Source of the DNA: Eledone cirrhosa
Taxonomy: Eukaryota
Direction of reading: 5' to 3'
Assembly (NCBI GenBank): GCA_964016885.1
Contig: OZ024741.1
Span: forward strand, 75,950,001 to 76,014,000
Length of the DNA: 64,000 bases
Shown here: piece by piece, positions 29,506 through 55,181 of the stretch
Layout of the letters: each line of letters opens with the position of its first letter
How positions within the stretch are numbered: the stretch's first letter is position 1
Program-made: the position numbers and the translations under genes
The notes under the pieces: model-generated
What the model saw: the letters and a program-made list of their open reading frames with translations, nothing else
What the model was told of the DNA's origin: nothing
Databases searched by the model: none

Positions 29506-30656
29506 ATATATATATATATATATATATAAATGTATATATATTTATTAAAATAACAGATTAAAGTTTAAGCAAAGAATCGCTGCTTTCACCCTGGATCTTC
29601 TGAAACTTTGAGCCCTCTTCAGATTTTAGTCTTCACATTTATTATTATTACTCTTTGACGTATAGAGTTACGGCCCTTGCCATTCTGAGTTCAAATCCTG
29701 CTAAGGTTAACTTTGCCTTTCATCCTTACAGGGTCGATAAAATAAAGTACCAGTAATGCACTGGGTAATTGCTGGCCTTGTGCCTAACGTAGAAACAATT
29801 ATTATTACTAAATATATACATATTTAACGAAGGGTTAAAATTATGTAAGAAATAGTTATTGTTAAATGGATTAGCATGGTTATAGTTGATATGATGAAAT
29901 AACTATAATAATAATAAGAAATGTAATATAGGAATATAATAATTTGGTTATATATAGTTTACTTCACGTGAATCAATTAAAAAGTACATATAAAACAGTT
30001 ACCAAGAGTTGTTAATGTTGTTATTGTTGCTGATGTGTAGTCTGTTGTTGTTGTTGGTGTGAAAACACCGAGCGACAGATAATTGTTGTTGTTGTTGGAA
30101 TTTGGGGTCCGTGGTAGTAGTTGTGAGACCGTAGTTAGTAATAGAGAGAGATATATGGTTTGTATATCTCTGAATGGTCTGTAATTAGTTGTAGACCACT
30201 GTGGCTTGTACATGGTCTGTAGAGTAGGGCTCAAATCTCTCTGTAGGCCTCATGGGGTCTGTTGATAGTGGTGAATCCTTACATAGTTTGTTGTATGTTG
30301 TGGTGCTTCGATGTCTCTGTGTTTCTGTAGACCTCAAAGGCCTGAAGGTAGCAGTGAATCTTTACATAGTTAGTTGTGTATCCTAGCGCTTCGATATCTG
30401 TCTTTTCTGTAGACCTCTGGGGTCTGAAGTTAGCGGTTAATCTTTACATAGTTAGTTATAGGTGTAATGCTCCGATGTTTCTCCTTGAGTGGGATAATAG
30501 CGCAGGTTTTATATACCTGTCGCTTCCTGTCCCCCACCTTGAGGGAATAGTCAACACATCAACTTGTCTATACCAGAAAGGTGTTGACCTAGAATTTAAC
30601 CTTTAGGTATCACCAAAAATTCAAGGCGCGGCCAGATTTCGCTACACACATATATA

Positions 30657-33600
30657 TCATCATCATCATCATCATCATCACCGTTTTACGTCCGTTCTTC
30701 CATGCTAGCATGGGTTAGACGGGTTGTCCTGTTGTGGGCAGTGTCTGGTCGGCTGACAATGCCTTGCTCATACAGGAACTGATTTTGGCTTGATTTCTAC
30801 AGCTGGATGCTCTTCCTAACACCAACCTCATTTACAGTGAGTGCTGGGTGTTTTTTTCCGTGACGCCTACACATCCACTTTACAGTGTGGGCTGGGTGCT
30901 TTTTTGCTGTGGCACCTCCACAACCACTTTGCAGTGGGAGGGTGTGGGGGCATATTGTCTATATGCTTCAGCTTGTACCCATGGGAGGTCGGGTACTCTG
31001 TATTACTGCGTGACGCCAGAAGTCACGGTCGTGTGTCATCGCTTTTGGGAGGTGTAATTGGGTAAGGTCGGCTTTTATCACCTCATCCCAGGTCTTCTTG
31101 GGTCTCCCCACACCGCGGTTTCCAATGACTTCTAGTGCTCTGCTTATGCAGCTGTCATCCTTCATACACATCACATGTGCATACCAACGCAACCGCCTCT
31201 CCTGCACACAGCATTTGATTCCTCTTATGCTCAGTCTCTCTCTCAATTCATTTATGCTTTGCCGTTCACGTATATTACTATTACACATCCATCGGAGCAT
31301 GCAGGGTTCGTTTCGTTTCTTTCTAATCTACGTAAGTCTTCCACCTTCAGCGCCCAGATCTCACTACCATGTAACATTGCTGTTCGGATACACGCATCAT
31401 ACAGTCTGCCTTTCATTTTGAGGGAAAAGCCTTTTGCAGCTAGCAGTGGCAGTAGTTCCCTGAACTTCTTCCATCCCGTTCTTACACTAGTTATTTTACT
31501 TTCTGAACACACACCTCCGCTGCTAATTCGATCACCTAGGTAGCAGAAGCTGTCTACTGTTTCTACAGAGCCCTCCCAGACATTGGTGGTACTTGTTTCC
31601 TGTGGTTGTTTGCTGCTTACTGCCCCAGCACAGATGCTACATGTGAAGCCTACATCTTAATTAAGCTTCCTGAGATCCCGCTACATCTCTTGTGTTTGCA
31701 TTTGGGGCAGAGAATGGAGTTCCTACCTACACCTTTCCTACATACTGAGCAAGCCATTTCCCTAAGGGGATCTGGGTTCTGTTTTCTAGTCTACTTACAA
31801 GGACCTTAGGCTTTGTCAGGTTGACTTTGAGACCCTTTCTTATAAATGCGAGGTCATCTGCATACAGGAGTTCCCATGGGCATCTAGTCTTAAACTCCTC
31901 CGTTATTGCCTGCAGGACTATGATGAACAGGAGAGCGCTAAGAACAGAGCTCTGGTGGACACCAACCTGTACGCTAAATTCCTCGCTATACTCATTGCTA
32001 ATCCTAACTTTGATGACTGCTCCCCTATACATGGCTTGTACAGCTTTCACAAGCCATTCATCTACTCCTAGTTTTCTAAGAGCCCACCAGATTATAGCAC
32101 GTGGAACTCTGTCAAAGGCTTTCTCGAGATCGACGAATGCCAGGTAGAATGGCTTACTTTTAGCTAGGTACTTTTCCTGTAACTGCCTCACAAGGAAGAG
32201 GGCATCAGTGGTGCCTTTTCCTGGTACAAACCCAAATTGCATCTCATCTAGTTTCACCCGGTCCCTAATCAACTGTGCTATAACTCTTTCTGTTACTTTC
32301 ATGACCTGGTCCATTAGCTTTATACCTCTATAGTTTCCTCTATCTAGTGCATCACCTTTACCTTTGTAGCAGTTGACAATGATGCTACTGCATCAATCTT
32401 TTGGTATGACACCTTCTAGTATTACCTGGTTAACAATATGTGTGGTTATAGTGTGACCTACAGACCCAGATGCCTTCAGCATCTCGTCAGCTATACCCGA
32501 TGGACCGGTTGCCTTCCTCATCTTCATATCTTTGATTGCCTTACTTACTACGCTGCTGCTGACTTGTACTGCTGGCCCCTCTTTAGGGTCTACTTGGAGT
32601 AGGGTCTCTTCTTCCCATGCATTCTCCTCATTTAGCAATCTATCATAATGGCTCTTCCATGCATCTTTCTTCTCAGCACTTGTGAAGGCAAGCTCACCTT
32701 TATTATTCCGGATACACTTCTCTCCAATTACATCACAATTCTCTCTGACACACTGCCTCGCAATCTTAAACACATGCTTGAATTTTCTATCCTCTGCTTC
32801 CCTCCTAGCTAAGTATACTTTTCGCCTAGCTTCCCCCTTGGTCTCTATGTAATGTACCCTGTTTCCCCCGTTCTTCCATTCTTTCCATGCCTGTCTCTTA
32901 CCCTTAACTGCCTCACCTACCTTATTGTTCCACCACCAAGTCACTCTCCTCCTGCTTGTGGTCTTACTCCAGCCACAGATCTCATCCGTCGCCTCTAGTA
33001 AGTTATTTTTTAGGAACCCCAGTGCTCTTCTACATTGACTGTCTCTATCTGTTCTTCTTTACTGTCGCAGGCGTTGAGTAAAATATCTTTAAATCTGTTA
33101 CTGGCTGAGGGGTCTTTCAGCTTCCAGATCTTTCTTCTCCAGGTTGGCCTCTGTTTCCAGGTTCGTCTAGTTCTGACAGTGAAGTCGCTGACAACTAAGC
33201 TATGTTGGGAGGTACATTCCTCACTAGGGAAGGCTTTTGTGTTTACGACCGTCCATCTTTCACGTCCTCTGATGAGGATAAAATCTATCTGACTAGAATG
33301 CTCCCCTGATCTATAGGTGATCAGGTGGTTGTCGGGTTTTTTTGAAGTTTGTATTACGGCTTCAATAGAGTCCATGGCATCCATGGACTCTATTGAAGCC
33401 GTCACAGTGTTTACCTATGTGTCCGTTAAAATCTCCTGCAATGATTAGGAAGTCATTGTCGTTTGTTAGAGCAGTAGTGTGCATTAGGGACTCGTAAAAC
33501 CTTTCCTTAAGTTCGTCTGGCAACCCCGTCTGGGTGCGTAAGCTGATATTATTGTGGTAATTGTTTTATTTAGGACTAGTCTGAGTTTAATGATTCTTGC

Positions 33601-34000
33601 ATTTACCCTGTTCACTGAGATTACTTTATCTACCCACTTGTCAGCGAGTAGAATACCTACACCCCCATCCCATCGTCATTTCTCACCCTGAAAAATTTGT
33701 AGCACTGACCTTTTCCTACAAGGACTCTAGCAGACTCCCCTCTCCATCTAGTCTCTTGCACACAGCATACATCAATTTCCTTTCGCTCTAGCATCTCTAC
33801 GATTTCTCCTGCTCTTCCTTTCATTGTGCTTACATTGATGGTACCAGCTCGGAGTTTTGGGCATTTGTCAACATTCGTGGGTAAGGGTCGATTTTTGCAG
33901 GGGTGTGCGTGTGCTTCCTGTCTCTGAATTGAAGCTTCACATGGGTGCTTGGTAGCTCGCGGATTCATATTCATTTTCATTTATTAATTCAGGGTTGCTC
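30657..34000 (-). mobile_element. Near full-length RTE LINE (APE + RT), same family as 517-3190, decayed; putative 5' UTR extends towards about 34880
   Basis: GTINVSTM..VCCVQETRW APE start, AGDFNGH, SQIDFIL, QFGF, FVDLEKAFDRVP, LLYADD; (CAT)n tail at 30657-30680. Confidence 0.95.
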
Positions 34001-34646
34001 AATTTATTCTCAGCTCATCCATACATAACGGTAGGAAAATTCAGGGCTAGAAGAACAGTGGTGGTGGTAATAATGGCAGGGTGTGTTGGGCTGGGACGGC
34101 GGAGGAGAGAGGTAGGTAGTAGTAGAAATGGCAGGGTTTGTGGGGTTGGTAGTGGGTGAGAGGGGCATGCTGAGGTTTGATTGGTCGAATATATTATGAT
34201 GGATGGGAGGGAGGGAAATTGTGAGGTAGGTAGCCAAATCATGGCCTGTAGCATCTCATGGCAAAATAGACGGATAGGAGTAGATGACTTTGAAGAGAAA
34301 GCGAACTGATAAATAAAACAACACTAATAATAGTGTAAGAGAGAGGAGGAGAGTAGATGACTTCGTAGAGAGGCAGCATGGTAGAGAAAATGAGGGTAAA
34401 AATAAATGTGTTGTGGAAGCTAGTGAAGTGATAAATACAGCAATAATTGTGTGAGCAGAACATTTGCAATTGGGGGAAATAGAGGGATACCCGGAAGATG
34501 TGTATGGATGGATGGCTGGAACGTGGTTAAGCAGCTCTAGTGATTCAGTTTAGCCTTTCAGAGTCAAGTGTGTCTTATCTCTTCAAGACTTCAAGATTAG
34601 TGAGGAAGAATGGGTGAGAGGGAAAGGGAGGTAATAGGTGGCTTAG

Positions 34647-34678
<32 letters not shown>

Positions 34679-34896
34679 AGGGTAGCCCTCATAGATAGAT
34701 AGAGAGAGAGAGAGAGAGAGGGTAGCCATCACAGAGAGAGGGTCGCCGTCATGGCAAAATAGACCGATAGGTGTAAATACAACAACACTAATAATAGAGT
34801 AAGAGAGAGGAAGAGAGTAGATGACTTCATAGGTAGCCAAATCATGGCCTGTAGCATCTCATTACAAGATAGACGGATGGGAGTAGATGACTTTGA

Positions 34897-34946
<50 letters not shown>

Positions 34947-36249
34947 ATTCAGGACCCCGACGGCTGAGCTCTGGCCGTTTCGACAGCTAGATCCGATAAT
35001 ATATATATTATACACCACAACCACCACCACTACCATTATTTTAACAACCCAAATTGATGGTTTCTTATTTGGGGAGAAAAAGAAAAGTGAGTTATGCCAA
35101 TCCTAGTACTTTAATGGTATTTTATCTTATCAACTCTGGAAGGATGAAAGGCAAATTTGACCTTGGCAGAATTTGAAATCAGAACCATAGCAGGTTGTAA
35201 TGAAATATTGCAATCTACCACCCAGTGTGTAAAGAAACAATAAACAAAAATGTTGCGTAATCTATTTCACACACACAAAAGCAACCTGTGAAAAATATAT
35301 TAATCGCTAAGTAAACAATGACTTTGAGATAAAAACTGCTACCTAGCTATTGTAAAATTAGTGTTGATATGGATAACCTACATTTTTATCTAAGCTAAAA
35401 TCCTAAACACCCACTGATTCACAAGCTCACACACAGGCAAACACACATATATATGCACACACACATACATGTTTATGCACACATTAAGGTAAAGTAGAAA
35501 AATACATTTTCTATTAATATTTTCAGTAAATTTAGAGAACATCTCCCTCGATTTCAGTGGGAAAAAATGTATTTTCTAATTTTTATGAATGCTGTCAACT
35601 AATCTAATCTGCAAGATGCTCGCAATCGACTTTTTTCCAGGAAAACGAAGGGGTTAGAGTGCTCCCCTCCTCAGAGTTTTCTCTACGATTCTTTTTCACA
35701 TGTTATCTACGAATATAACTTCCAAACCAATTGGAAATGACTAGCTTTGTAGAAAAAAAAAGGGGGGGGGGTAGAAAAACCATTTGAGTTTTACAGATCT
35801 ATGCCCCCTCGTGTTTGGTTGGACATAAATATTTTTCTTCAGTTTTTTTTGTATGCTATCAACTGATTTGACCTCCAAGATACTCACAATTGACTCTTCT
35901 CCCTAGAAAACGAAAACCCTAACCCTATCCATAACCTTAATCTGAGAAAAAATGTTGATGTGTGTGTGTGTATATATGTCTGTATATGTGTGTAGATGTG
36001 TGTTTACGTATGTGCATGTGTATATATAGGTTGCAAATTGGCAGAGTCGATAGAACATTTGATAGAATGCTTTGCAATATTTGTTCCAGCTCTCTGCACT
36101 CTGTGTTCAAATCCTGTTGAGGGTTAACTTTCTTTTTTCATTTTTTTTTTTTGCAGTTAATAAAATAAAGTACCAGTCCAGCACTTGGGTCGATTCTTCT
36201 TCTATACCTCTTTCTCCCTCTCTCTCTTTCTTCAGAAAAAATCTGCTGT

Positions 36250-39200
36250 GTTCAGACTGTGGCCGCACCATAGCTATGTACAGCTTTAAATAGATAGCTG
36301 GAGAGTGGCTGACAAAGGTCTTGCTGAGTGATGCTAAGACACCCTCGGCCTTCTTGACAATTTTAGAGACGTGCTTCGTCCAACGCAAATCGCTGCTGAC
36401 CGTAATGCCCAGGTCACGTTCACAAGAAGACTTCTTGATATTAGTGTTGTGGAGGGAGTATGTGGACGCTGGGTTTTTACTCCCAAAATGCATGGTGGTG
36501 CACTTGTCCACAGCTAGCTTGAGTTTCCAGTCTGTGATCCATTGTTGCATTGTGTCCAGATCAGATTGCAGGCAAGATTTATAGTGTTCAAGATCTGTCC
36601 TTTTTATCTCAAGGTACAGCTTGATGTCATCTGCATATTTCAGTACTGTGGCATTCTTTAAGTTGGCATCTATGTCATTAATATATGCCACAAACAAGAG
36701 GGGGCCAAGAACAGATCCCTGTGGTACACCAGATGACATCTCATGCGGTGAGGAATGCTGTCCTAGAACCGTGACTACCTCTCTTCGACTGAGAATGAAG
36801 GACTTCAACCAGTTAAAAAGATCATCCTTCACACTCATTGCAGAGAGTTTTGCCATAAGTCTTTTGTGTGGCACAGAATTGAAAGCTTTAGCAAAGTCAA
36901 GGTAAACAACATCCACCCATGAGCCGCCATCAGTGATCTGGGTGATGTCTTCAAGAAACTCGATCAGTTGATCACAGCAGCTGGAGTTAGGGATAAATCC
37001 AAATTGCGAGGGCCGGATAAGACTGTGAGAGTTCCAGAAGTTCCAAAGCATTTCTCTGATACAGGATTCCATCAGTTTGGCAATGCAGCTAATAACACTG
37101 ACTGGATGATAGTTCACAGTGATGTGCGGTCACCCTTTTTGAACAGACGAATGACACTGGCAGTTTTCCACTGTTCTGGAGTAGCACCGTTGTTCAGACA
37201 GAATTGGAAGAAGCATGATAGCTGGTGCAGAAGGAAGTACCTACCACGTTTAAGAAGCAGGTACGTAACACCATCAAAACCAGGAGGGGCATGATTGCAT
37301 TTATTTTTGAGGTGACGTCGCAGCATTGCAGGTGTAAATTCCATAGTTGTAATAGAATCCGATGTCATAGGTGGTGGAGACGGTACATTCTGGTCTTCAA
37401 TAGTGAAAATGCCTGCATAGCATTCAGCAATGAGCTCTGCGCATTCCTTGGGGTCGTCAGTAACCTGGCTTGTGTGGGGATTGTGAAGAGAACAACTGGA
37501 GAGTGAGGCTTCTGCTTTGAGTGAACATACTTCCAGAACACCTTACTCTCAAGGCTGGTTGCTATGCGCTGCTCAAATTGAAGTACTGCCTTTTTTGTCA
37601 CCTGTTTGAGATGGTTGGATGATTTATTTCGCTTCTTCCTATTGATATCTGATTTGTGCAGTTTGTACTCACGTTCAGCATTACAACGTCTTTCCTGGCA
37701 AGACGGACTGCTGCAGTCTCCCAAATTGCACTTTTGGGATGTTTTTCTGCTTACGTGGCACCGATGCTGCACATGCTGTCCATATTGAGCTCAAGGTGTA
37801 CTGGGGTACAGTTTTGACATCTCCAGAGTCGTAGAACTCAATCCAGTTTGGCCGTTGCAACTCGGTGCAGTAACAGTTCCAGTCTGCTTTATTCCAGTCT
37901 AAGTGAGCAGTTTGGAGATGGTTGTGGCTCTTGTTACTGGCCTTGAGGGATAGATTGGCAATGATCATAGCATGATCAGAGGCTTCAGTAGTCACACTAA
38001 TAACCATTTCAGGAGTAGTGGTTTCAGGAGTGGTGGTTTCAGGAGTGGTGGTTTCAGGAGTAGTGGTTTCAGGGGTAGTGGTTTCAGGAGTAGCTGTTTC
38101 AGGGGTAGTGGTTTCAGGGGTAGTGGTTTCAGGGGTAGTGGTTTCAGGGGTAGTGGTTTCAGGGGTAGTGGTTTCAGGGGTAGTGGTTTCGGGGGTAGTG
38201 GTTTCAGGAGTAGTGGTTTCAGGGGTAGTGGTTTCAGGAGTAGTGGTTTCAGGAGTAGTGGTTTCAGGGGTAGTGGTTTCAGGAGTAGTGGTTTCAGGAG
38301 TAGTGGTTTCAGGAGTAGTGGTTTCAGGGGTAGTGGTTTCAGGAGTATTGGTTTCAGGAGTGGTGGTTTCAGGGGTAGTGGTTTCAGGAGTGGTGGTTTC
38401 AGGGGTAGTGGTTTCAGGAGTGGTGGTTTCAGGGGTAGTGGTTTCAGGGGTAGTGGTTTCAGGGGTAGTGGTTTCAGGAGTAGTGGTTTCAGGAGTAGTG
38501 GTTACAGGGGTAGTGGTTTCAGGAGTAGTGGTTTCAGGGGTAGTGGTTTCAGGGGTAGTGGTTTTAGGAGTAGTGGTTTCAGGGGTAGTGGTTTCAGGGG
38601 TAGTGGTTTTAGGAGTAGTGTTTTCAGGGGTAGTGGTTTCAGGAGTAGTGGTTTCAGGGGTAGTGGTTTAAGAAGTGGTGGTTTCAGGGGTACTGGTTTT
38701 AGGGGTAGTGGTTTCAGGGGTAGTTGTTTCAGGGGAAGTGGTTTCAGGGGTAGTGGTTTCAGGAGTAGTGGTTTCAGGGGTAGTGGTTTCAGGGGTAGTG
38801 GTTTCAGGAGTAGTGGTTTCAGAAGTAGTGGTTTCAGGGGTAGTGGTTTCAGGGGTAATGGTTTCAGGAGTGGTGGTTTCAGGAGTAGTGGTTTCAGGGG
38901 TAGTGGTTTCAGGGGTAGTGGTTTCAGGAGTGGTGGTTTCAGGGGTAGTGGTTTCAGGGGTAGTGGTTTCAGGGGTAGTGGTTTCAGGAGTAGTGGTTTC
39001 AGGGGTAGTGGTTTCAGGAGTGGTGGTTTCAGGGGTAGTGGTTTCAGGGGTAGTGGTTTCAGGGGTGGTGGTTTCAGGGGTAGTGGTTTCAGGGGTAGTG
39101 GTTTCAGGGGTAGTGGTTTCAGGGGTAGTGGTTTCAGGAGTATTGGTTTCAGGGGTAGTGGTTTCAGGAGTAGTGGTTTCAGGGGTAGTGGTTTCAGGAG

Positions 39201-42200
39201 TAGTGGTTTCAGGAGTAGTGGTTTCAGGGGTAGTGGTTTCAGGAGTGGTGGTTTCAGGGGTAGTGGTTTCAGGGGTAGTGGTTTCAGGGGTAGTGGTTTC
39301 AGGAGTAGTGGTTTCAGGGGTAGTGGTTTCAGGAGTGGTGGTTTCAGGGGTAGTGGTTTCAGGGGTAGTGGTTTCAGGGGTGGTGGTTTCAGGGGTAGTG
39401 GTTTCAGGGGTAGTGGTTTCAGGAGTAGTGGTTTCAGGAGTAGTGGTTTCAGGGGTAGTGGTTTCAGGAGTGGTGGTTTCAGGGGTAGTGGTTTCAGGGG
39501 TAGTGGTTTCAGGGGTGGTGGTTTCAGGGGTAGTGGTTTCAGGGGTAGTGGTTTCAGGGGTAGTGGTTTCAGGAGTAGTGGTTTCAGGGGTAGTGGTTTC
39601 AGGAGTAGTGGTTTCAGGAGTAGTGGTTTCAGGGGTAGTGGTTTCAGGAGTGGTGGTTTCAGGGGTAGTGGTTTCAGGAGTAGTTGTTTCAGGAGTAGTG
39701 GTTTCAGGAGTAGTGGTTTCAGGAGTAGTGGTTTCAGGGGTAGTGCTTTCAGGAGTGGTGGTTTCAGGGGTAGTGGTTTCAAGAGTAGTGGTTTCAGGAG
39801 TAGTGGTTTCAGGGTAGTGGTTTCAGGGGTAGTGGTTTCAGGAGTGGTGGTTTCAGGGGTAGTGGTTTCAGGAGTTGTGGTTTCAGGAGTAGTGGTTTCA
39901 GGGGTAGTGGTTTCAGGGGTAGTGGTTTCAGGAGTAGTGGTTTCAGGGGTAGTGGTTTCAGGAGTTGTGGTTTCAGGAGTAGTGGTTTCAGGGGTAGTGG
40001 TTTCAGGGGTAGTGGTTTCAGGAGTAGTGGTTTCAGGGGTAGTGGTTTCAGGAGTAGGGGTTTCAGGGGTAGTGGTTTCAGGGGTAGTGGTTTCAGGGGT
40101 AGTCGTTTCAGGGGTAGTGGTTTTAGGAGTAGTGGTTTCAGGGGTAGTGGTTTCAGGAGTAGTGGTTTCAGGGGTAGTGGTTTCAGGGGTAGTGGTTTCA
40201 GGGGTAGTGGTTTCAGGAGTAGTGGTTTCAGGGGTAGTGGTTTCAGGGGTAGTGGTTTCAGGGGTAGTGGTTTCAGGAGTAGTGGTTTCAGGAGTAGTAG
40301 TTTCAGGGGTAGTGGTTTCAGGGGTAGTGGTTTCAGGGGTAGTGGTTTCAGGAGTAGTGGTTTCAGGAGTAGTGGTTTCAGGGGTAGTGGTTTCAGGGGT
40401 AGTGGTTTCAGGGGTACTGGTTTCAGGGGTGGTGGTTTCAGGGGTAGTGGTTTCAGGGGTAGTGGTTTCAGGGGTAGTGGTTTCAGGAGTGGTGGTTTCA
40501 GGGGTAGTGGTTTCAGGAGTAGTGGTTTCAGGGGTAGTGGTTTCAGGGGTAGTGGTTTCAGGAGTGGTGGTTTCAGGGGTAGTGGTTTCAGGAGTAGTGG
40601 TTTCAGGAGTAGTGGTTTCAGGGGTAGTGCTTTCAGGAGTAGTGGTTTCAGGGGTAGTGATTTCAGGAGTAGTGGTTTCAGGAGTAGTGGTTTCAGGGGT
40701 AGTGGTTTCAGTGGTAGTGGTTTCAGGAGTGGTGGTTTCAGGGGTAGTGGTTTCAGGAGTAGTGGTTTCAGGAGTAGTGGTTTCAGGGGTGGTGGTTTCA
40801 GGGGTAGTGGTTTCAGGAGTAGTGGTTTCAGGTGTAGTGGTTTAAGGTGTAGTGGTTTCAGGGGTAGTGGTTTCAGGGGTGGTGGTTTCAGGGGTAGTGG
40901 TTTCAGGAGTAGTGGTTTCAGGAGTAGTGGTTTCAGGGGTAGTGGTTTCAGGAGTGGTGGTTTCAGGGGTAGTGGTTTCAGGGGTAGTGGTTTCAGGGGT
41001 GGTGGTTTCAGGGGTAGTGGTTTCAGGGGTAGTGGTTTCAGGGGTAGTGGTTTCAGGAGTAGTGGTTTCAGGGGTAGTGGTTTCAGGAGTAGTGGTTTCA
41101 GGAGTAGTGGTTTCAGGGGTAGTGGTTTCAGGAGTGGTGGTTTCAGGGGTAGTGGTTTCAGGAGTAGTTGTTTCAGGAGTAGTGGTTTCAGGAGTAGTGG
41201 TTTCAGGAGTAGTGGTTTCAGGGGTAGTGCTTTCAGGAGTGGTGGTTTCAGGGGTAGTGGTTTCAAGAGTAGTGGTTTCAGGAGTAGTGGTTTCAGGGTA
41301 GTGGTTTCAGGGGTAGTGGTTTCAGGAGTGGTGGTTTCAGGGGTAGTGGTTTCAGGAGTTGTGGTTTCAGGAGTAGTGGTTTCAGGGGTAGTGGTTTCAG
41401 GGGTAGTGGTTTCAGGAGTAGTGTTTTCAGGGGTAGTGGTTTCAGGAGTTGTGGTTTCAGGAGTAGTGGTTTCAGGGGTAGTGGTTTCAGGGGTAGTGGT
41501 TTCAGGAGTAGTGGTTTCAGGGGTAGTGGTTTCAGGAGTAGGGGTTTCAGGGGTAGTGGTTTCAGGGGTAGTGGTTTCAGGGGTAGTCGTTTCAGGGGTA
41601 GTGGTTTTAGGAGTAGTGGTTTCAGGGGTAGTGGTTTCAGGAGTAGTGGTTTCAGGGGTAGTGGTTTCAGGGGTAGTGGTTTCAGGGGTAGTGGTTTCAG
41701 GAGTAGTGGTTTCAGGGGTAGTGGTTTCAGGGGTAGTGGTTTCAGGGGTAGTGGTTTCAGGAGTAGTGGTTTCAGGAGTAGTAGTTTCAGGGGTAGTGGT
41801 TTCAGGGGTAGTGGTTTCAGGGGTAGTGGTTTCAGGAGTAGTGGTTTCAGGAGTAGTGGTTTCAGGGGTAGTGGTTTCAGGGGTAGTGGTTTCAGGGGTA
41901 CTGGTTTCAGGGGTGGTGGTTTCAGGGGTAGTGGTTTCAGGGGTAGTGGTTTCAGGGGTAGTGGTTTCAGGAGTGGTGGTTTCAGGGGTAGTGGTTTCAG
42001 GAGTAGTGGTTTCAGGGGTAGTGGTTTCAGGGGTAGTGGTTTCAGGAGTGGTGGTTTCAGGGGTAGTGGTTTCAGGAGTAGTGGTTTCAGGAGTAGTGGT
42101 TTCAGGGGTAGTGCTTTCAGGAGTAGTGGTTTCAGGGGTAGTGATTTCAGGAGTAGTGGTTTCAGGAGTAGTGGTTTCAGGGGTAGTGGTTTCAGTGGTA

Positions 42201-45200
42201 GTGGTTTCAGGAGTGGTGGTTTCAGGGGTAGTGGTTTCAGGAGTAGTGGTTTCAGGAGTAGTGGTTTCAGGGGTGGTGGTTTCAGGGGTAGTGGTTTCAG
42301 GAGTAGTGGTTTCAGGTGTAGTGGTTTAAGGTGTAGTGGTTTCAGGGGTAGTGGTTTCAGGGGTGGTGGTTTCAGGAGTAGTGGTTTCAGGAGTAGTGGT
42401 TTCAGGGGTGGTGGTTTCAGGGGTAGTGGTTTCAGGAGTAGTGGTTTCAGGTGTAGTGGTTTAAGGTGTAGTGGTTTCAGGGGTAGTGGTTTCAGGGGTG
42501 GTGGTTTCAGGAGCAGTGACTTCAGGGGTAGTGGTTTCAGGGGTAGTGGTTTCAGGAGTAGTGGTTTCAGGGGTAGTGGTTTCAGGAGTAGTGGTTTCAG
42601 GGGTAGTGGTTTCAGGGGTAGTGGTTTCAGGGGTAGTGGTTTCAGGAGTAGTGGTTTCAGGGGTAGTGGTTTCAGGGGTAGTGGTTTCAGGAGTAGTGGT
42701 TTCAGGAGTAGTGATTTCAGGAGTAGTGGTTTCAAGAGTAGTGGTTTCAGGAGTAGTGGTTTCAGGGGTAGTGGTTTCAGGTGTAGTGGTTTAAGGTGTA
42801 GTGGTTTCAGGGGTAGTGGTTTCAGGGGTGGTGGTTTCAGGGGTAGTGGTTTCAGGGGTAGTGGTTTCAGGGGTAGTGGTTTTAGGAGTAGTGGTTTCAG
42901 GGGTAGTGGTTTCAGGAGTAGTGGTTTCAGGGGTAGTGGTTTAAGAAGTGGTGGTTTCAGGGGTACTGGTTTTAGGGGTAGTGGTTTCAGGGGTAGTTGT
43001 TTCAGGGGAAGTGGTTTCAGGGGTAGTGGTTTCAGGAGTAGTGGTTTCAGGGGTAGTGGTTTCAGGGGTAGTGGTTTCAGGGGTAGTGGTTTCAGGGGTA
43101 GTGGTTTCAGGGGTAGTGGTTTCAGGGGTAGTGGTTTCAGGGGTGGTGGTTTCAGGGGTAGTGGTTTCAGGGGTAGTGGTTTCAGGGGTAGTGGTTTTAG
43201 GTGTAGTGGTTTCAGGGGTAGTGGTTTCAGGAGTAGTGGTTTTAGGGGTAGTGGTTTCAGGAGTGGTGGTTTCAGGGGTAGTGGTTTCAGGGGTAGTGGT
43301 TTCAGGGGTAGTGGTTTCAGGGGTAGTGGTTTCAGGAATGGTGGTTTCAGGGTTAGTGGTTTCAGGAGTAGTGGTTTCAGGAGTAGTGGTTTCAGGAGTA
43401 GTGGTTTCAGGGGTAGTGGTTTCAGGAGTAGTGGTTTCAGGAGTAGTGGTTTCAGGGATAGTGTTTTCAGGAGTAGTGGTTTCAGGAGTAGTGGTTTCAC
43501 GGGTAGTGGTTTCAGGGGTAGTGGTTTCAGGAGTAGTGGTTTCAGGGGTAGTGGTTTGAGGGGTAGTGGTTTCAGGGGTAGTGGTTTCAGGAGTGGTGGT
43601 TTCAGGAGTGGTGGTTTCAGGGGTAGTGGTTTCAGGGGTAGTGGTTTTAGGAGTAGTGGTTTCAGGGGTAGTGGTTTCAGGGGTAGTGGTTTCAGGAGTA
43701 TTGGTTTCAGGGGTAGTGGTTTCAGGAGTAGTGGTTTCAGGGGTAGTGGTTTCAGGGGTAGTGGTTTAAGGGGTAGTGGTTTCAGGAGTAGTGGTTTCAG
43801 GGGTAGTGGTTTCAGGGGTAGTGGTTTCAGGGGTAGTGGTTTCAGGAGTAGTGGTTTCAGGGGTAGTGGTTTCAGGAGTAGTGGTTTCAGGGGTAGTGGT
43901 TTCAGGGGTAGTGGTTTCAGGGGTAGTGGTTTCAGGGGTAGTGGTTTCAGGGGTAGTGGTTTCAGGGGTAGTGGTTTCAAGAGTAGTGGTTTCAGGGGTA
44001 GTGGTTTCAGGAGTAGTGGTTTCAGGGGTAGTGGTTTCAGGAGTAGTGGTTTCAGGGGTAGTGGTTTCAGGAGTAGTGGTTTCATGGGTAGTGGTTTCAG
44101 GGGTAGTGGTTTCAGGGGTAGTGGTTTCAGGGGTAGTGGTTTAAGGTGTAGTGGTTTCAGGGGTAGTGGTTTCAGGGGTGGTGGTTTCAGGGGTAGTGGT
44201 TTCAGGGGTAGTGGTTTCAGGGGTAGTGGTTTTAGGAGTAGTGTTTTCAGGGGTAGTGGTTTCAGGAGTAGTGGTTTCAGGGGTAGTGGTTTAAGAAGTG
44301 GTGGTTTCAGGGGTACTGGTTTTAGGGGTAGTGGTTTCAGGGGTAGTTGTTTCAGGGGAAGTGGTTTCAGGGGTAGTGGTTTCAGGAGTAGTGGTTTCAG
44401 GGGTAGTGGTTTCAGGGGTAGTGGTTTCAGGAGTAGTGGTTTCAGAAGTAGTGGTTTCAGGGGTAGTGGTTTCAGGGGTAATGGTTTCAGGAGTGGTGGT
44501 TTCAGGAGTAGTGGTTTCATGGGTAGTGGTTTCAGGGGTAGTGGTTTCAGGAGTATTGGTTTCAGGGGTAGTGGTTTCAGGAGTAGTGGTTTCAGGGGTA
44601 GTGGTTTCAGGGGTAGTGGTTTCAGGAGTATTGGTTTCAGCGGTAGTGGTTTCAGGAGTAGTGGTTTCAGGGGTAGTGGTTTCAGGAGTAGTGGTTTCAG
44701 GAGTAGTGGTTTCAGAGGTAGTGGTTTCAGGGGTAGTGGTTTCAGGGGTAGTGGTTTCAGGGGTAGTGGTTTTAGGGGTAGAGGTTTCAGGAGTAGTGGT
44801 TTCAGGAGTAGTGGTTTCGGGGTAGTGGTTTCAGGAGTAGTGGTTTTAGGAGTAATGGTTTCAGGGGTAGTGGTTTCAGGGGTAGTGGTTTCAGGGGTAA
44901 TGGTTTCAGGAGTAGTGGTTTCAGGGGTAGTGGTTTTAGGGGTAGTGGTTTCAGGAGTGGTGGTTTCAGGGGTAGTGGTTTCAGGGGTAGTGGTTTCAGG
45001 AGTAGTGGTTTCAGGGGTAGTGGTTTCAGGAGTAGTGGTTTCAGGAGTAGTGGTTTCAGGGGTAGTGGTTTCAGGGGTAGTGGTTTCAGGAGTAGTGGTT
45101 TCAGAAGTAGTGGTTTCAGGGGTAGTGGTTTCAGGGGTAATGGTTTCAGGAGTGGTGGTTTCAGGAGTGGTGGTTTCAGGAGTAGTGGTTTCAGGGGTAG

Positions 45201-46870
45201 TGGTTTCAGGGGTAGTGGTTTCAGGAGTAGTGGTTTCAGGAGTAGTGGTTTCAGGAGTAGTGGTTTCAGGAGTAGTGGTTTCAGGAGTAGTGGTTTCAGT
45301 GGTAGTGGTATCTGGGGTAGTGGTTTCAGGAGTAGTGGTTTCAGGGGTAGTGGTTTCAGGGGTAGTGGTTTCAGGGGTAGTGGTTTCAGGGGTAGTGGTT
45401 TCAGGAGTAATGGTTTCAGAAGTAGTGGTTTCAGGGGTAGTGGTTTCAGGGGTAGTGGTTTCAGGGGTAGTGGTTTCAGGAGTGGTGGTTTCAGGGGTAG
45501 TGTTTTCAGGGGTAGTGGTTTCAGGGGCAGTGGTTTCAGGAGTAGTGGTTTCAGGAGTAGTGGTTTCAGGAGTAGTGGTTTCAGGAGTAGTGGTTTCAGG
45601 GGTAGTGGTTTCAGGGGTATTGGTTTCAGGGGTAGTGGTTTCAGGGGTAGTGGTTTCAGGGGCAGTGGTTTCAGGAGTAGTGGTTTCAGGGGTAGTGGTT
45701 TCAGGAGTAGTGGTTTCAGGGGTAGTGGTTTCCGGGGTAGTGGTTTCAGGGGTAGTGGTTTCAGGGGTAGTGGTTTCAGGGGTAGTGGTTTCAGGGGTAG
45801 TGGTTTCAGGGGTAGTGGTTTCAGGAGTAGTGGTTTCAGGAGTAGTGGTTTCAGGGGTAGTGGTTTCAGGGGTAGTGGTTTCAGGGGTAGTGGTTTCAGG
45901 GGTAGTGGTTTCAGAGGTAGTGGTTTCAGGAGTAGTGGTTTCAGGAGTAGTGGTTTCAGGAGTAGTGGTTTCAGGGGTAGTGGTTTCAGGGTTAGTGGTT
46001 TCAGGAGTGGTGGTTTCAGGGGTAGTGGTTTCAGGAGTAGTGGTTTCAGGAGTAGTGGTTTCAGGAGTAGTGGTTTCAGGGGTAGTGGTTTCAGGGGTAG
46101 TGGTTTCAGGAGTAGTGGTTTCAGGAGTAGTGGTTTCAGGAGTAGTGGTTTCAGGGGTAGTGGTTTCAGGGGTAGTGGTTTCAGGGGTAGTGGTTTCAGG
46201 AGTAGTGGTTTCAGGGGTAGTGGTTTCAGGGGTAGTGGTTTCAGGAGTAGTGGTTTCAGGAGTAGTGGTTTCAGGAGTAGTGGTTTCAGGGGTAGTGGTT
46301 TCAGGGGTAGTGGTTTCAGGAGTAGTGGTTTCAGGGGTAGTGGTTTCAGGAGTAGTGGTTTCAGGGGTAGTGGTTTCAGGGGTAGTGGTTTCAGGAGTAG
46401 TGGTTTCAGGAGTAGTGGTTTCAGAAGTAGTGGTTTCAGGGGTAGTGGTTTCAGGAGTAGTGGTTTCAGGGGTAGTGATTTCAGGGGTAGTGGTTTCAGG
46501 GGTAGTGGTTTCAGGAGTAGTGGTTTCAGGAGTAGTGGTTTCAGGGGTAGTGGTTTCAGGGGTAGTGGTTTCAGGGGTAGTGGTTTTAGGGGTAGTGGTT
46601 TCAGGAGTAATGGTTTCAGGAGTAGTGGTTTCAGGGGTAGTGGTTTGAGGAGTGGTGGTTTCAGGAGTAGTGGTTTCAGGGGTAGTGGTTTCAGGGGTAG
46701 TGGTTTCAGGGGTAGTGGTTTCAGGGGTAGTGGTTTCAGGAGTAGTGGTTTCAGGAGTAGTGGTGAAGAGTAGGTCCAAAGTGTTGTCACCTCTTGTTGG
46801 GGAGGTGACTACTTGGGACCAGTTCGAGTACAGCACTAGCTCAAGGAAGACATTTGCACATGGCGGCCAA
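36250..46870 (-). mobile_element. CR1-group LINE ORF2 remnant (APE C-terminus + RT), split by an 8.76-kb satellite
   Basis: QVVTSPTRGDNTLDLLFT..SDH (APE); PPGFDG, FKKGDR..NYHPVS, QFGF, YLDFAKAF, GVPQGSVLGP, YADD, ERDLGI; both ends truncated. Confidence 0.92.
38008..46764. repeat. 15-bp tandem satellite (TTCAGGRGTRGTGGT)n, 584 units
   Basis: 8757 bp = 584 x 15 minus three 1-bp deletions (about 39812, 41296, 44819). Confidence 0.98.
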
Positions 46871-47313
46871 TAAAAGGTTTCCCAGTCAATATGTAAGAAC
46901 CTTCATTAATTTGTGTTTCGATAAAGTTAATAATTTTACTAAATTGCTCCAAATTGTTGATGATTTTCAAAATTATTTGAAAATCATAGACAACATATTT
47001 TTTGGTAGAAATATGGAAAGAAATGGGGGTAAATCAACTAGGTCACCTATTTAATGTCATTGTGTTTCACAGCTAGGTTTTAATATATATTTTAATATAA
47101 GGGTGGTGGATTAGCAGAATTGGTAGAATGTTGGATAAAATTCCATTACAGTATTTTTCTGGTTCTTTACTTTCTGAGTTCAAATCCTGCCATGGTCAAC
47201 TTTGCCTTTCATCCTCTTAGGATTGATAATTTATAGTACCTGTGCAGTAGTGGGTTTAATTATTCATCTTTGCTCTTACCCCAAAGTTGCTGACCTTGTG
47301 CCTAAATTAGAAA

Positions 47314-47489
47314 TCTATATATAATATAAAAGAGAGATGTTTCTTGGTTGGTTTAATCACACGAAAATTGCACACACGCATATCTAAAGAGAGAAAGACA
47401 CAGAGGGAGAGGCAGAGTGAAAGAGAGAGATAGGCCGTTATACAGAGAGATACTATTAAAGTGTTAGATATTCAGATAGATAGATAGAA

Positions 47490-47535
<46 letters not shown>

Positions 47536-48135
47536 AGAGAGAGAGAGAATAGCAATGAACGCTGGTTTACACACAAACACACACATCTATATATCTGTTA
47601 GAACACGAAAAGTGTGAAACAACAGAATGTTCACTTTTCGTGTTCTAACATATATGCGTAGCTTCTTAAAAAATTTTTCGGGGATAGCCGTGGTGGTGGT
47701 GATCGTATGTCATTGGCTAATTTTCAACCAATCAGAGTACCTCTCTCTATATCTCTTCCACTGTTACTTACGCCTGTTTCTCTCTATCTGTTCCGTCTCT
47801 ATATATATCTCTTACTCTTTCGCTTTGCACTCCTCCCCTTCAATACCATCTCTCCCCCTCTCTATATATTTGTTACTCTATCGCTGCACGCTCCTCTCCT
47901 TCAATATATCAATTACACACGCTTTACACTCCTTTATCCCCAGCGCCCCTATATATACACCCCCCCTCTCCCGCATCTATATTTTAATGTACCGTTGCAC
48001 CGTGAATATATGTGTCTATATATATATACATATATATTGTATATACACATTCATGTATGTGTATACACACTCATGTATGTATATACACTGGTTTTATGTG
48101 TGTATTGTAAATTTGTACTGTTAAAACACGAAACT
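47314..48135 (+). mobile_element. Probable non-autonomous Helitron 5' portion
   Basis: A|TCTATATATAATATAAAA start and (GGTT)n like the other Helitron 5' ends; no 3' hairpin seen. Confidence 0.4.
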
Positions 48136-50162
48136 AACATTCGATTGACACTTTGATTACCTGTACAGGCAATAGTTATTAGAATGCTGTTGAAGTGTGT
48201 ATATATTTTTGGGGGACATCCTGTATATACACACATTATATATAATACAATAAACAGATAAATACACACATATATATATGAGCTTATTTAATTATAAATA
48301 TTGTGAATTTTTAACTCAGTTCAATTATATATATAAATGGTTTCTACAGGACTAGAACTGTTTCATTCGAAAGAAATCATCATAATATTGAGAGGGGGGA
48401 CTAGATAAAATATTTCAAATCAAATGTGTATAAGTTATAAGTTAAAATGTATAAATAGAGACGATAGTGGAGGTATATCTGTTTAGTGGAACAGTAGACG
48501 ATAGAATTAAATACAGACGATAATCTCCCTTTAATGAAACAGCAGACGATAGAATTAAGGCAATTTAAATTTTAAGCATTTGCATTTTTTGCCTTTCATC
48601 GTTACGGGGTCGATAAAATAAAGTACCAGTAATACACTGTCACTAGACGACTTTCAAATTGAATTGTTGGTTCCATTTCTTTAGTATTTTCAATTGTAGT
48701 TATCTACTTAAAAAGCGTTACACGGTTAGAGACATAATTCGTAAGTTATATCTTCCCTATTAAACCATTGCATTATTTCGCCTACAATAGAACAAAAATG
48801 AAATGTTCTTTAAAGAAACAGGAATATAACTTTATAAAAAAAAAAGTTGCATCCGCTTCTTTTATCATTGATAATTTTTTCGTTTTAATATTAATTGTTT
48901 TTTGTAGTTGTTTATATTAAAAATCTTACTGTAATATTTACTTAAACGAAGGCAAACATCTAAACTTATAGATTAATCTTGAGCGAAGGACTAGATAAAT
49001 CTCTCTCCCTCTCTCTCCCTCTCTCTCTATATATATATATATATAAACGAAGAATGATAAAATTTCAAGCAAAGAGTTTAATTAGGTATATTTTGTAATA
49101 TTATTAACTAATTATTATAATTAACGCGCATATTTTGCTATCCTCAAACACGTTTACGCATGGCATGAAATATAACTAATCCGAGATGGCTAGGTTTCAT
49201 CTTCTAACTGGATATACGAAATCCATTATGTCTTGACAACAACATGAGGTAACATTATGTTATTCACAGACACACTTTGTACACTGTTCCATATCAGAAT
49301 GTATTTCCTTCGTCACATTCACAAACAGTATTGAAAATATGTTCTTCGGCAAATAAAAATGTTTTGTTCATAATATTTCAACTAGCGATTACTCTACTCC
49401 ACGCACGACCACCATAAATTAATGACCAGCTCAACACAAGTATTGGTAGAGCGTCAGACACCATGCTTTGCAGTATTGTTATGGTCCTTTGCATTCTAAG
49501 TTCAAATCCTGCCGAGGTTAACTTCGACTTTCATACTTACTAATTCGATAAAATAAAGTACCAGTAATGGACTGCCGTAATGGATTTGTGCCGAAAAATA
49601 GAAACACTATTAATGTGCAATAAGAGCAAAATATAACGACATTGCTCAATTATTTTATCTAATGTTGTAATAACACAAGGAAATGTTGTTTGTGTATTTT
49701 TTTTTATATTTGCTCATAGGCTTTTACAATTTCGCTCAGCCAACAACTATTAAAAAGTGAGTTGCTTAAGATAACAATTTAATCACAAATTGTTGCTATC
49801 TTTTAATACACTCCAACAAGTCATCAAATTATGTACAATAAAAACAAATCTTATTAATTTGCTCAGGGAATATAAAGAAAATGTATATACACTGATAATT
49901 GCAATTGTATGTAAATATTTTGTTTTTGTATTGTATATTTTATGTTTTCTATTATGTATAATATATTGATTTAATATTGATTGTTTTTTGTAGTTGTTTA
50001 TATTAAAAGTCTGAAAATATTTTTATACATCTTACACTAATATTTATAAGATAATTTATAATAACAATTACATAATCTAATTACATTACAACGATAATTT
50101 ATTATTAATATATATCCTGTTTAACTAGAGTTATTACAAGCGTTGCCTTAAAAAAATATTAA

Positions 50163-51119: not shown

Positions 51120-54100
51120 ATATATATTAGTAGATGTCTGTGTATTTGTTTGTCTGTGCATAATGCCAATGAGGGAGTGAGAGCAGAAAGCAAGAGAGAA
51201 AGATAGAGGGAGAGATAGAGTGAAAGAAACAAACAGAGGGTGTGTGTGAGAGAACCACAGAATGAGAAAAAGACAGAGAAGAAAGAAACACAGAGAGAGA
51301 ACAAGTTTCTATTGTAGAAATTCAGAGGGAGGTAGCAGGAGAGAGAGAGAGAGACGCTGTGTTTGATACTGTATGTATAAGTGTCAGTGTAGATACATGT
51401 GTGTGCAAATAAGATGGGAAGGAAAGCAATAATTGTTAGTATGTATGTGTGTGTGTGTATGTGCACACATGCGTGTGTGAGCGTGCGCATGCGGCGTTCC
51501 ACAGAAAGTAAAAACTATCAACATGTGTGAGTGTGTGCGTGTTTGTAGGTGCACGTGTGCGTGTGTGCATTTGGGTGAGTGTGCGCATTTGGTGTGTGTG
51601 AGTAGGTGCACGTGTGCGTGTGTGCATTTGCGTGAGTGTGCGCATTTGGTGTGTGTGTGTGTGTGTGCGTGCGTGCTTGCGGCATTCCACAATCGCCATT
51701 TATTTCAATCACTCTTGTGAAGATATTCACTTAACTTTCACTCATTTCTTCATTTAATCCCCATTTTAATTTTCAAAAAAATTTCAGAGAAAAATGTTCT
51801 CACTCTCTACAAGAGGAGGCGGGGTAGATGTAGATGATCAGTATTCTACAGTGAAGCAAAAACGAGTACAAGTATCAAGAGCAAGGTCACTAGAGACCCC
51901 TGCACATCGACAGCAAAGACATGAAAATGACCGGAAGAGAGCTGCTGCACGCAGGGCCAATGAGACACAAGAGGCAAGGGAAAAATGGTTAGAACAATTA
52001 CGTCAACAAAACGCAATCCACAGAAGCCAAGAGTAAAAAAAGGAAAGAGAAAAACGTTTAAAGGATGCAAGACAAAGACAAGCTGCCACAGTTGTCAATG
52101 AGACAATAGGTCAGCGAGAGATTAGACAAAGAAAAACCAGGAGCAAACAGTTGCTGCAAGACTTCCTCAGAGGAAAGACGTAAGCGTTTTGATCAAGATA
52201 GACTGAATACATTTAACAAAAGAGTTGCACCTTTCAAGGGGATTTGGGAAAGATCAACTTTCAACTATGATTCAAAAAGTGATTATTCTACAGAGAAATT
52301 GATTGATATTGGAGCAATGTCAAAAGAGTGCAATTTTTGTAAAGGAAAGAAATGGGAAAAAGAAACCCCCACTATGTGTTGTGGTGGAGGAACGGTTGTT
52401 TTACCAGCGCTTGGTACACCCCAAAAACTTTGAAGGCATTGCTTTTGGGAAACACACCAAGGAGCATGCACTTCTTGAAAAACATTAGGAATTATAATTC
52501 TGCTTTCCAAATAACCTCCTTTGGTAGCAATATTATAAGAGAAGGGAACATGAAGCCAACTTTTAAAGTTCAAGGTCAACTATACCATCGTATTGGATCT
52601 TTGTTGCCAACTGAACGCAAAAACCCTCAGTTTTTACAGCTATATTTTGTGGCAAATTACAAGGAGCAGGCTTGAAAGAAAAGTTAATCAAATTTGAAAG
52701 AAAAGTTAATCTTTGATCTGCAAGATATGCTGCATGCAAACAATAGCTACATAAGAAACTTCAAGTATGCATTATAATCTGCACCACCCACTGAATACAA
52801 AAAACTGTGAAGTCTTTGGACCAGTCAAATGTGACATGTACTCAACTGAATGCCAAAATCGAGGATTGCTACATGCCCACATTTTGATTTGGTTACATGA
52901 AAAAACTTCAGCTAAATGATATTGATTTATTTATCCCAGCTGAACTACCTGATCCACAGCAAGATCCTTTGCTGCATGAATTGTCAAGTCCCAGATAATT
53001 CATGGGCCCTGTGGTTCAATGAATCCATCCTCCTCATGCATGAGGGATAATAAGTGTACCAAGAACTACCCATGTCCCTTTGTACAAGAAACCCAAACTG
53101 GAAAATGTGGCTACCCCCTTTACAGAAGAAGAAAACCTGCACATGGTGGATTCACTTCAAAAAAAGAAAATGAGAAATGGGCAAAAATTCATCATTGACA
53201 ATTGGTGGGTTGTACCCTACTGTCCTCTTCTTACAAAAACCTTCAAAGCCCATATCAATGTTAAATTCTGCAACTCTGTTAAGTCTATTAAGTATGTTTG
53301 CAAATATATAAACAAAAGTTTAGATATTGCAACATACACTCTTATGCAGAATGGCAGTTAGCAGATAAATAAAAATGACAAAGTTGCACAGTATGAGAGA
53401 GGAAGATACATCAGTAGCAATGAGGCTTTTTGGCGCATCTTCAATTTTCCCATTCATGAGAGGCACTCAGCCATCATTCATCTGAGTGTCCATCTAGAGA
53501 ATGGCCAAAGGGTTATCTTTACAAAACAAACAGCCTTGCAACAAACACTTTCTTCAAAAGAAACTACCCTTATTGACTTTTTTAAGTTGTGTCAAGAAGA
53601 TGAAGATGCAAGAAAACTCCTTTACCTAGAATTACCCAAGTATTACACATGGAGAAACAATAAATGGCACAAGAGGAAACATGGCACAGGTAAAATATTT
53701 GTAACAACATTGCTTCTCTCCAAGGTAAGACAACAAAAACGAATTGCAGTTACTGTAGCATCGTCTGGCATTGCTGCCACCCTTCTCCCAGGAAGACGAA
53801 CTGCTCATTCTGCTTAAATTACTGCTAAACCTGGTCAGAAATGACAGTCCAATTTGTAAGATAAGCAAAGGTTCAGGTTCAGTAGAAGTGTTGCGCCAAT
53901 GCCATCTGATCATTTGGGATGAATGCACCATGTCACACAGAGGTGCAATGGAAACTCTTGATAAGACCTTACAGGACATAAAAGTCAACAATAAATCTAT
54001 GGGAGGAGTTTCATTAGTTTTATCAGGAGACTTCAGACCAATATTACCAGTCATTCCGAGCAGAACAAGAGCTGATGAAATAAAAGCATGCATTAAGTCT

Positions 54101-55181
54101 TTGCACCAATGGAATAAAGTACAGAAATTCTCTTTCAATACTAACATGCGAGCTTTATTATATGGGGACCAATGAGCAGAACAGTTTTCAACCCAGCTCC
54201 TCCAATTAGGAAATGGGAAAGTACCAATTGATAGGAATGGTGATAACAATTTGGCTCATATTGCTATCATGGTGAATTCCCCAGCTGAATTGAAGAATAG
54301 GGTATTTCAAGACTTAAGTTATAATTATAATTCACATAAATGGTTGTGTGTAAGGACAATTCTTGCTCCCAAAAATGAGACAGTAGCAAGGATTAACCAT
54401 GAATTAATGAATAAGATTCCAACAGTCATTAAGGAGTACAAATCAGTTGATTCAGTCCTTGATGAAAATCAAGCTGTCTGCTACCCAACAGAGTTCCTTA
54501 ATTCTCTTGAGCCATCTGGAATTCCTCCACATAAACTTTTTCTGAAGGTAGGAGTCCCAATAATGCTTCTAAGAAATTTAGATTCTTCTAAATCATGCAA
54601 TGGGTCAAGGTTGATTGTGAAAACATTATTACCTAATATGATAGAAGCTACCATCATCACTGGATGTGCTTCTGGGGAAGACGTTTTCATTCCAAGAATT
54701 CCAATCAAACCAATAGACATGCCATTTGAGTTCAAACGAACACAATTCCCAGTGCGGCTTTACTTTGCAATGTCTATTAATAAAGCTCAAGGTCAGACTT
54801 TGAAATCTACTAGCTTGCACTTAATTGAGCCTTGCTTTTCTCATGGTCAACTTTATGTTGGTTGCTCTAGGGTTATTTGTCTATGCTCTAAACCAGAAAA
54901 CAAAGAATGTTGTTTTCCCAGAAGCTCTTACGTAATTTCCTTCAACATATGTCATAGAATTTATCTCCCTTCATAAAAGTGGTAAATTTTGTATTTTCGT
55001 TTTTCATCATTATTATTATTTTTTTTTTGTATTATGAATTCAGAATTGATTTTATCATGTATCCCAATTGAAGAATAAATTGAATTTAGAATAACAAATT
55101 TCTATACAACATATTTTGCTTTTTTCTTCTAATATATAAGGAACGATTTCATTCCCAGGCAATGTCGGGTGCCTCTGCTAG
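51114..55181 (+). mobile_element. Helitron derived from an autonomous element; RepHel pseudogene with internal deletions
   Basis: MCCGGG, IRNYNSAF, FKVQGQLYH, RGLLHAHILIW (HUH), KYVCKYINK, GTGKIF, VASSGIAA, IIWDECTM, GDFRPILPV, FAMSINKAQGQT, FSHGQLYV; 3' CCCAGGCAATGTCGGG hairpin and CTAG|T; 5' boundary approximate. Confidence 0.93.

Follow-up and report, generated by a model that had tools for sequence, protein, structure and literature searches.

A 584-unit, 15-bp minisatellite in a broken LINE copy of Eledone cirrhosa, probably arisen in place

Introduction

Tandem repeats that stem from transposable elements (TEs) are a documented class (PMC3389668, PMC9659126), the human genome alone having been reported to hold 7,276 of them, 601 associated with L1 (Ahmed and Liang 2012, PMC3389668). 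According to that survey, whose units are longer than 20 bp, Alu-derived arrays have a mean copy number of 2.3-2.4, the two standard models explain only 6% of TE-derived minisatellites, and 94% of TE-derived repeats have neither flanking direct repeats nor an incomplete end unit (PMC3389668). Here we describe a locus that can be set beside these cases, in a window of 64,000 nucleotides from Eledone cirrhosa (assembly GCA_964016885.1, contig OZ024741.1, positions 75,950,001 to 76,014,000 of the forward strand; all coordinates below are those of the window): an array of 584 tandem 15-bp units, which lies within endonuclease codons of a broken copy of a long interspersed nuclear element (LINE).

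The germline instability of two mouse minisatellites, Ms6-hm and Hm-2, has been measured. Both come from MaLR long terminal repeats (LTRs) and, like the (GGCAGA)n variable number tandem repeat (VNTR) from the short interspersed nuclear element (SINE) B1, are reported as short native motifs expanded in place (PMC9659126, PMC6947457), as here; all three belong to non-coding parts of non-autonomous elements, whereas the present array stands in endonuclease codons. The chicken HinfI satellite (from CR1) and the satellites PROsat and Pvc20 (from L1) share with it the conversion of LINE open reading frame 2 (ORF2) into tandem sequence (PMC9659126), but they are described as satellite families in which the monomers include, or look like, parts of LINEs, while here a 15-bp unit keeps both parent flanks attached and apparently occupies one locus. 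The human minisatellites (PMC3389668) are closer, since their units are pieces of their own element multiplied by local duplication, mostly at a single locus, and since the array, like 94% of the human repeats, lacks flanking direct repeats and an incomplete end unit. It departs from the human set, whose table may nevertheless include long cases from L1 ORF2, in its 584 units, its place in ORF2 coding sequence, its LINE group and its invertebrate host.

The start of minisatellites is poorly explained, and the locus is a preserved test case, with a one-unit ancestor in many family copies, exact junctions and rare variants which date the internal blocks. It is set apart by its large size, its intact parent junctions and its origin in endonuclease codons; the birth of a repeat in place within a TE is a known process, and nothing in the array suggests a novel mechanism or a novel function. 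Because TE-derived tandem repeats are a documented class, the weight that a first-pass annotation of the window had attached to a "satellite" born from a LINE was overstated. Among Creative Commons papers in PMC and bioRxiv preprints, we found no account of this array or of cephalopod LINE-derived minisatellites. Our reading, to which we assign a probability of roughly 0.85, is that the minisatellite arose in place after the insertion of the LINE copy and grew, free of coding selection, by slippage and later by unequal exchange; it would be a likely neutral and probably single-locus product of a retrotransposon.

Results and Discussion

Structure of the array

Tandem Repeats Finder (TRF) places the array at 38007-46764 with a period of 15, 584.1 copies, 92% matches and a score of 14639, and an edit-distance parse resolves it into 584 head-to-tail units over 38008-46764 (8,757 bp), of which 581 are 15 bp and three 14 bp long. 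The unit thus falls in the 10-100 bp range of minisatellites. The array and its three short units, numbered from the 5' side of the LINE (which is on the minus strand), are as follows:

38008..46764, minus strand: array of 584 15-bp units (TTTPE codons), from TRF and the unit parse
44816..44829, minus strand: unit 130, with a 1-bp deletion that is a separate event, from the unit parse
41292..41305, minus strand: unit 365, with a 1-bp deletion in a C run, from the unit parse and context comparison
39808..39821, minus strand: unit 464, with the deletion of unit 365 carried along by a 99-unit duplication, from the unit parse, block comparison and context

In the minus-strand translation PTRGDNTLDLLF precedes the array and MVISVTTEASDH comes after it, both in the TTTPE frame, and the array meets each flank exactly, with a complete unit and zero extra bases. 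TTTPE is read in 493 of the 580 full units translated, nine units contain an in-frame stop, and 475 of the 584 units belong to four types (272, 155, 33 and 15 units) that are distinguished by two C/T transitions, each in the third position of a codon. These counts bear out the first-pass annotation in its central description, an 8.76-kb run of about 584 TTTPE units inside a LINE endonuclease, and the observation lies far beyond chance. Elsewhere in the window no unit occurs at two or fewer mismatches. When the array and its two junctions were folded as DNA, none of six stretches gave a hairpin beyond shuffled sequence, and a search of 33000-50000 against Rfam returned nothing at gathering score.

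Origin of the unit

Where the unit comes from is indicated by relatives of the host copy. Its closest relative, the protein P0001 (the one match among 147 candidates), reads LDLIFTTTPETVISVTTEEPLGDSDH, with a single TTTPE at the site of the array, and is 87% and 69% identical to the two pieces that flank it. We examined 154 related proteins (134 could be parsed and 20 could not), and all 154 lack both a five-residue repeat and a second TTTPE; in 117 of the 134 parsed the DL and SDH motifs are 20 residues apart, the remaining spacings being 12, 19 (ten proteins), 21 (three), 22 (two) and 31. The same picture emerges from sequencing runs aligned to 37300-38052, a segment that includes three units: at least two contigs of run X4, among the loose ends listed, leave the reference at 38022, and the nine letters with which they go on are those of window 46765-46773, the passage from unit 1 to the 5' flank. 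Depth over units 2-3 falls to zero in X4, X17 and X21; as contigs show presence only, this absence is not proof, and in X21, a reduced-representation library, it is uninformative. Among the runs of small share, X17 alone entered the analysis.

Judged by these relatives, the unit corresponds to five codons (TTTPE) that are native to the endonuclease, stand between its DL and SDH motifs and are single in other copies. The proposal that native LINE sequence was amplified in place is thereby supported (by P0001, by the spacing in 117 of 134 relatives and by the X4 contigs at 38022), and the count of units in relatives comes out as that proposal had it, the family carrying the 15-mer once at this site (P0001, X4 contigs). 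A further proposal, that removal of all but one unit restores an ordinary C-terminus of an apurinic/apyrimidinic endonuclease (APE), fails: the window copy has a DL-to-SDH spacing of 16 residues with one unit, and of 11 with none, against the 20 of most relatives, because a net 12 bp were lost just downstream of the array:

37980..37986, minus strand: 12 bp net (4 codons) missing just ahead of the SDH motif, a loss absent from most family copies, from the gap against P0001 and loose ends at 37985

Among the loose ends listed at 37985 are eight X1 contigs, three X4 contigs and 102 X21 reads, and they carry the letters coding for EEPLGD that are missing in the window. In metagenome contigs, 121 pattern matches to related loci were obtained and none was confirmed.

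The host element

The array divides the endonuclease of a LINE copy, of which three parts could be recognized:

46765..46890, minus strand: 5' remnant of the LINE ORF2 endonuclease, IDWETF to LDLLF, sharing 41 of 47 residues with P0001 49-95 (first unit included), from tblastn
37120..38007, minus strand: endonuclease tail (SDH) and ORF2 linker, frameshifted, from protein alignment and family reads
36245..37141, minus strand: reverse transcriptase (RT) part of ORF2, cut off on its 3' side, from Pfam RVT_1 (E 2.4e-36) and 54.5% identity to P0002 347-665

Upstream of the array only about 128 bp of the LINE are kept, homology stopping (tblastn) near 46890, where unrelated AT-rich DNA begins; beside the RT part no match was found to the last ~140 residues of P0002, homology ending near 36245. 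Compared with the window's linker, family reads have one additional base behind each of 37492, 37688 and 37741. The two endonuclease pieces alone have no match in Pfam; they align to P0001 49-114, inside that protein's own Exo_endo_phos_2 match (9-114, E 1.9e-13), so that an RT domain is found directly and an APE endonuclease upstream of it by way of P0001, as in an ORF2 of APE type. The best PDB match of P0001 is 8c8j, an RNA-directed DNA polymerase, with R2 proteins next.

The nearest sequences of the host (P0001, P0002, P0010 and P0018) have the endonuclease C-terminus, linker and RT in the same order; the window copy differs from them in that both its ends are cut, it is frameshifted, it lost 12 bp before SDH and it carries 583 surplus endonuclease units. 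Since both ends are cut and the linker is frameshifted, the host is an internal fragment of a dead APE-type LINE, its truncations near 46890 and 36245, frameshifts and stops setting it apart from an active one. It is plausibly CR1-like by its motifs, the searches having returned no named references and the C-terminal part being missing from the window. CR1 is reported among the LINEs of Octopus vulgaris (PMC13282606).

Two observations concern the surroundings of this copy and its relatives. A SINE-like short dispersed repeat is present near both LINE ends (47110-47270 and 36037-36190) and at several other sites (29681, 27266, 35184, 49439, 56982 and 6351). One clear relative of the endonuclease-linker region, P0006, stands in NCBI under a Verrucomicrobiota metagenome bin, where it is called a hypothetical protein and comes from a 1.8-kb contig; it is likely host DNA in that bin.

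Growth of the array

Comparison of the string of units with itself reveals five pairs of duplicated blocks, with scores of 149, 39, 29, 22 and 19, whereas the best scores in 20 shuffles of the unit order were 9-15. The blocks are 99 (head to tail), 21, 19, 12 and 13 units long, the last four pairs lying 375, 90, 285 and 21 units apart; the copies of each pair share rare mutations and have 0-1 mismatching units, and 288 of the 584 units are involved in all. These five internal copies above the shuffled level indicate growth by local duplication of units. Short higher-order periodicity is lacking at lags 1-12 (0.27-0.34, with 0.29 expected), and lag 99 alone stands out. The largest pair is:

40887..42370, minus strand: first copy of the 99-unit block, units 294-392 (1,484 bp), score 149 against 9-15 in shuffles
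39403..40886, minus strand: second copy, covering units 393-491, from self-comparison

This duplication has a consequence for the reading frame. The deletions of units 365 and 464 have identical context, one in each 99-unit copy, and therefore the three 1-bp deletions of the array are two events and one copy. The first-pass annotation had stressed that the LINE halves remain in the same frame because three deletions sum to a codon; its arithmetic stands (46836-38007 = 8829, divisible by 3) and its significance does not. The frame match is uninformative, given that the unit length is divisible by 3 and that one deletion was duplicated: when the second 99-unit copy is taken out, the length leaves a remainder of 1 on division by 3. 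The equal frame of the two halves is thus a coincidence, a by-product of the latest duplication. Conservation of the frame as a sign of selection was considered and rejected on the same count of two events and a copy.

The 99-unit copies differ at one position in 1,484 bp, while at 15 of the 40 sites listed in the flank at least 97% of the X1 depth differs from the letter of the window, i.e. at least about 2% of 700 bp. From this contrast we infer that block copying continued long after insertion, the latest 1,484-bp block being far younger than the LINE copy.

How the first duplication came about is less easily read from the junctions. At period 15 they match over 0 bases on the 5' side and one base on the 3' side, which is far from the 5-10 bp of the flanking-direct-repeat (Haber-Louis) model (PMC6947457, PMC3389668); the Thr that follows the unit in P0001 would allow two matching bases in the ancestor. 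A first step may have been a 15-bp tandem duplication that needed no flanking direct repeats, perhaps aided by the near-triplet make-up of the unit. Small-scale slippage or conversion could next have spread the two transition variants across the array, and unequal crossing-over or repair synthesis would then have copied entire blocks, the last one of 1,484 bp. Slippage and unequal exchange are both described as established behavior of tandem arrays (PMC9659126), and slippage for the first steps, with unequal exchange or repair synthesis for the blocks, is the combination we consider probable here.

Coding capacity

In the TTTPE frame the array stays open through unit 129, and a 1,869-codon open frame spans 41293-46902. 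Rare substitutions (124 in the array, 1.4% per base) comprise 27 synonymous and 88 residue-changing ones and nine stops; leaving out the second 99-unit copy reduces them to 108, of which 20 are synonymous (about 25% expected, p = 0.15), 80 alter a residue and eight are stops. With nine stops, three frameshifts and 27 of 124 synonymous, there is no sign of the purifying selection expected in a mucin-like Thr/Pro exon, and coding selection likely played no part in the growth of the array. Used as a protein query, the junction with 11 units matched P0001 only, among 24 candidates. No RNA run was found among the sequencing runs sharing half the words of the flank, which says nothing on expression. 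Arrays like this one are liable to mucin-like gene calls.

Locus number, length and alternative explanations

Tandem units are present in run X1, in which one contig goes back 45 bases (depth 42) and the summed depth over units 2-3 is 6,644; these units show that the array as such is no artefact. The X1 depth with the window's own letter amounts to 8-12 at five private sites, and from it about 550-810 units are estimated, a rough figure and a loose use of the data, since summed depth is not a true copy number. On this rough measure, depth over the tandem units fits about one array of hundreds of units, not a genome-wide satellite; classical satellite arrays are very long, heterochromatic, high in copy number and usually spread over several loci. 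The array is probably a single-locus minisatellite on the X1 depth, also a rough guide, and the label "satellite" says too much. As regards support by reads, for which the same annotation had called, the tandem units are found in X1 and a read linking the array to the LINE copy was not seen.

Several points weigh against growth in place at one locus free of coding selection. At a single-copy depth of 16-20 the X1 estimate becomes about 330-420 units; X1, possibly the sample from which the window derives, contains only 44% of the words of the flank; five of 15 private sites have no X1 depth for the window's letter; and no read or contig aligned to 37300-38052 was seen joining the array to the LINE copy. 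Additionally, the rare substitutions are not independent, as smaller block copies are still counted, the two common variants are silent in the TTTPE frame (with a chance of about 0.1), and no microhomology explains the first duplication.

X4 comes from the same organism as X1 and shows no tandem units where scaling would lead us to expect a depth of 26-158; with contigs showing presence only, this hints at polymorphism and does not establish it. It is possible, although we would not bet on it, that the array is a very young segregating allele, one haplotype of one individual having ~584 units while others have, in this same LINE copy, a single unit or a few. If this were so, the whole path from a single copy with no flanking repeats to 8.8 kb would be recorded within one species, together with both flanks of the parent, a private 12-bp marker at a distance of 23 bases and an internal map of variants, and the first step of minisatellite birth could be read.

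The length might also have been inflated by assembly, the 99-unit duplication (and perhaps the 1-bp deletions in C runs) being errors of long-read consensus or overlap, so that the true array would have ~485 units and be out of frame. Long reads often err in four-base C runs, and two of the three deletions are in such a run; moreover, the two adjacent 1,484-bp copies differ at a single base. Yet the other block copies, 21-375 units apart and with 0-1 mismatching units, show that block duplication is real at this locus, X1 holds tandem units, and the rough estimate of 550-810 units does not demand a shorter array. We therefore hold such an inflation to be unlikely.

More improbable still is that G-quadruplexes (G4) drove the expansion, by way of a four-G run which the commonest unit carries on the plus strand and which would stall replication forks. 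The run is present in 331 of the 584 units, 26 non-overlapping G4-like motifs can be formed with loops of up to 12 bases, and both terminal units, whose type may be ancestral, lack it. The loops here would be 11 bases long, whereas minisatellite instability is reported to be triggered by short loops of at most 3 bases (PMC5491262), and units with the run are not clustered (24 runs of four or more, against 26 +/- 3 in shuffles).

We give slightly less credence again to an imported array, grown elsewhere or in another LINE copy and brought in by gene conversion at the shared 15-mer, or belonging to a multi-locus satellite family. Ectopic exchange is conceivable because the family is abundant (its summed X1 depth runs into the tens of thousands). 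Against this, X1 depth over units 2-3 fits about one array and X4, X17 and X21 have none (a comparison of presence only), the 154 related proteins are free of such repeats, and three tandem units have 0 matches in the metagenome collection, a weak test for animal sequence.

Still less credible is that RT stuttering made the array in one go at insertion. Retrotransposition may indeed start some tandem repeats (PMC3389668), and the junctions have no direct repeats; however, block copies that differ by 0-1 units, between flanks that diverge from the family by about 2% or more, place most of the growth after insertion, and only the very first duplication could date from it. Finally, the least likely reading is that the TTTPE frame was taken up as a Thr/Pro-rich exon of mucin type or as a LINE-derived protein with a function. 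The two synonymous common variants and the open units 1-129 could be quoted for it; against it stand nine stop units, three frameshifts, 88 residue-changing substitutions in 124, a junction that matched P0001 alone, and neighboring open frames which, where scanned, resemble transposon remnants.

Other repeats in the window

The window is rich in other transposon remnants, and its repeat content looks like that of an octopus. Two decayed copies of one other LINE family, which appears RTE-like by its motifs, lie in opposite orientation ~30 kb apart (805-2663, plus strand, and 31252-33414, minus strand), with RVT_1 matches and very similar translations; two further non-LTR RT remnants are found on the plus strand at 17550-19087 and 19990-21404, with an RVT_1 match at 17942-19084 and no Pfam match for 20841-21401. 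On the minus strand, 6914-10350 holds LTR-retrotransposon-like fragments of raised GC, with zinc knuckle, DUF7047 and weak integrase matches in separate frames. A Penelope-like frame with RT and GIY-YIG matches, open for 360 codons, occupies 60798-61880 (plus strand), and 25858-26460 (plus strand) resembles it, with no Pfam match. Helitron-like PIF1 helicase fragments are present at 52343-54976 (plus strand) and from 28336 onward (PIF1 E 1.7e-28, Pif1_2B E 3.6e-17). Besides these, short tandem repeats that have no relation to the main array, with 2-3 copies of an 82-88 bp unit, occur at 16200, 30240-30483 and 56051-56373, and four two-copy tandem repeats with related-looking units of 48-49 bp (2974, 4556, 13543 and 30823) are probably one dispersed element.

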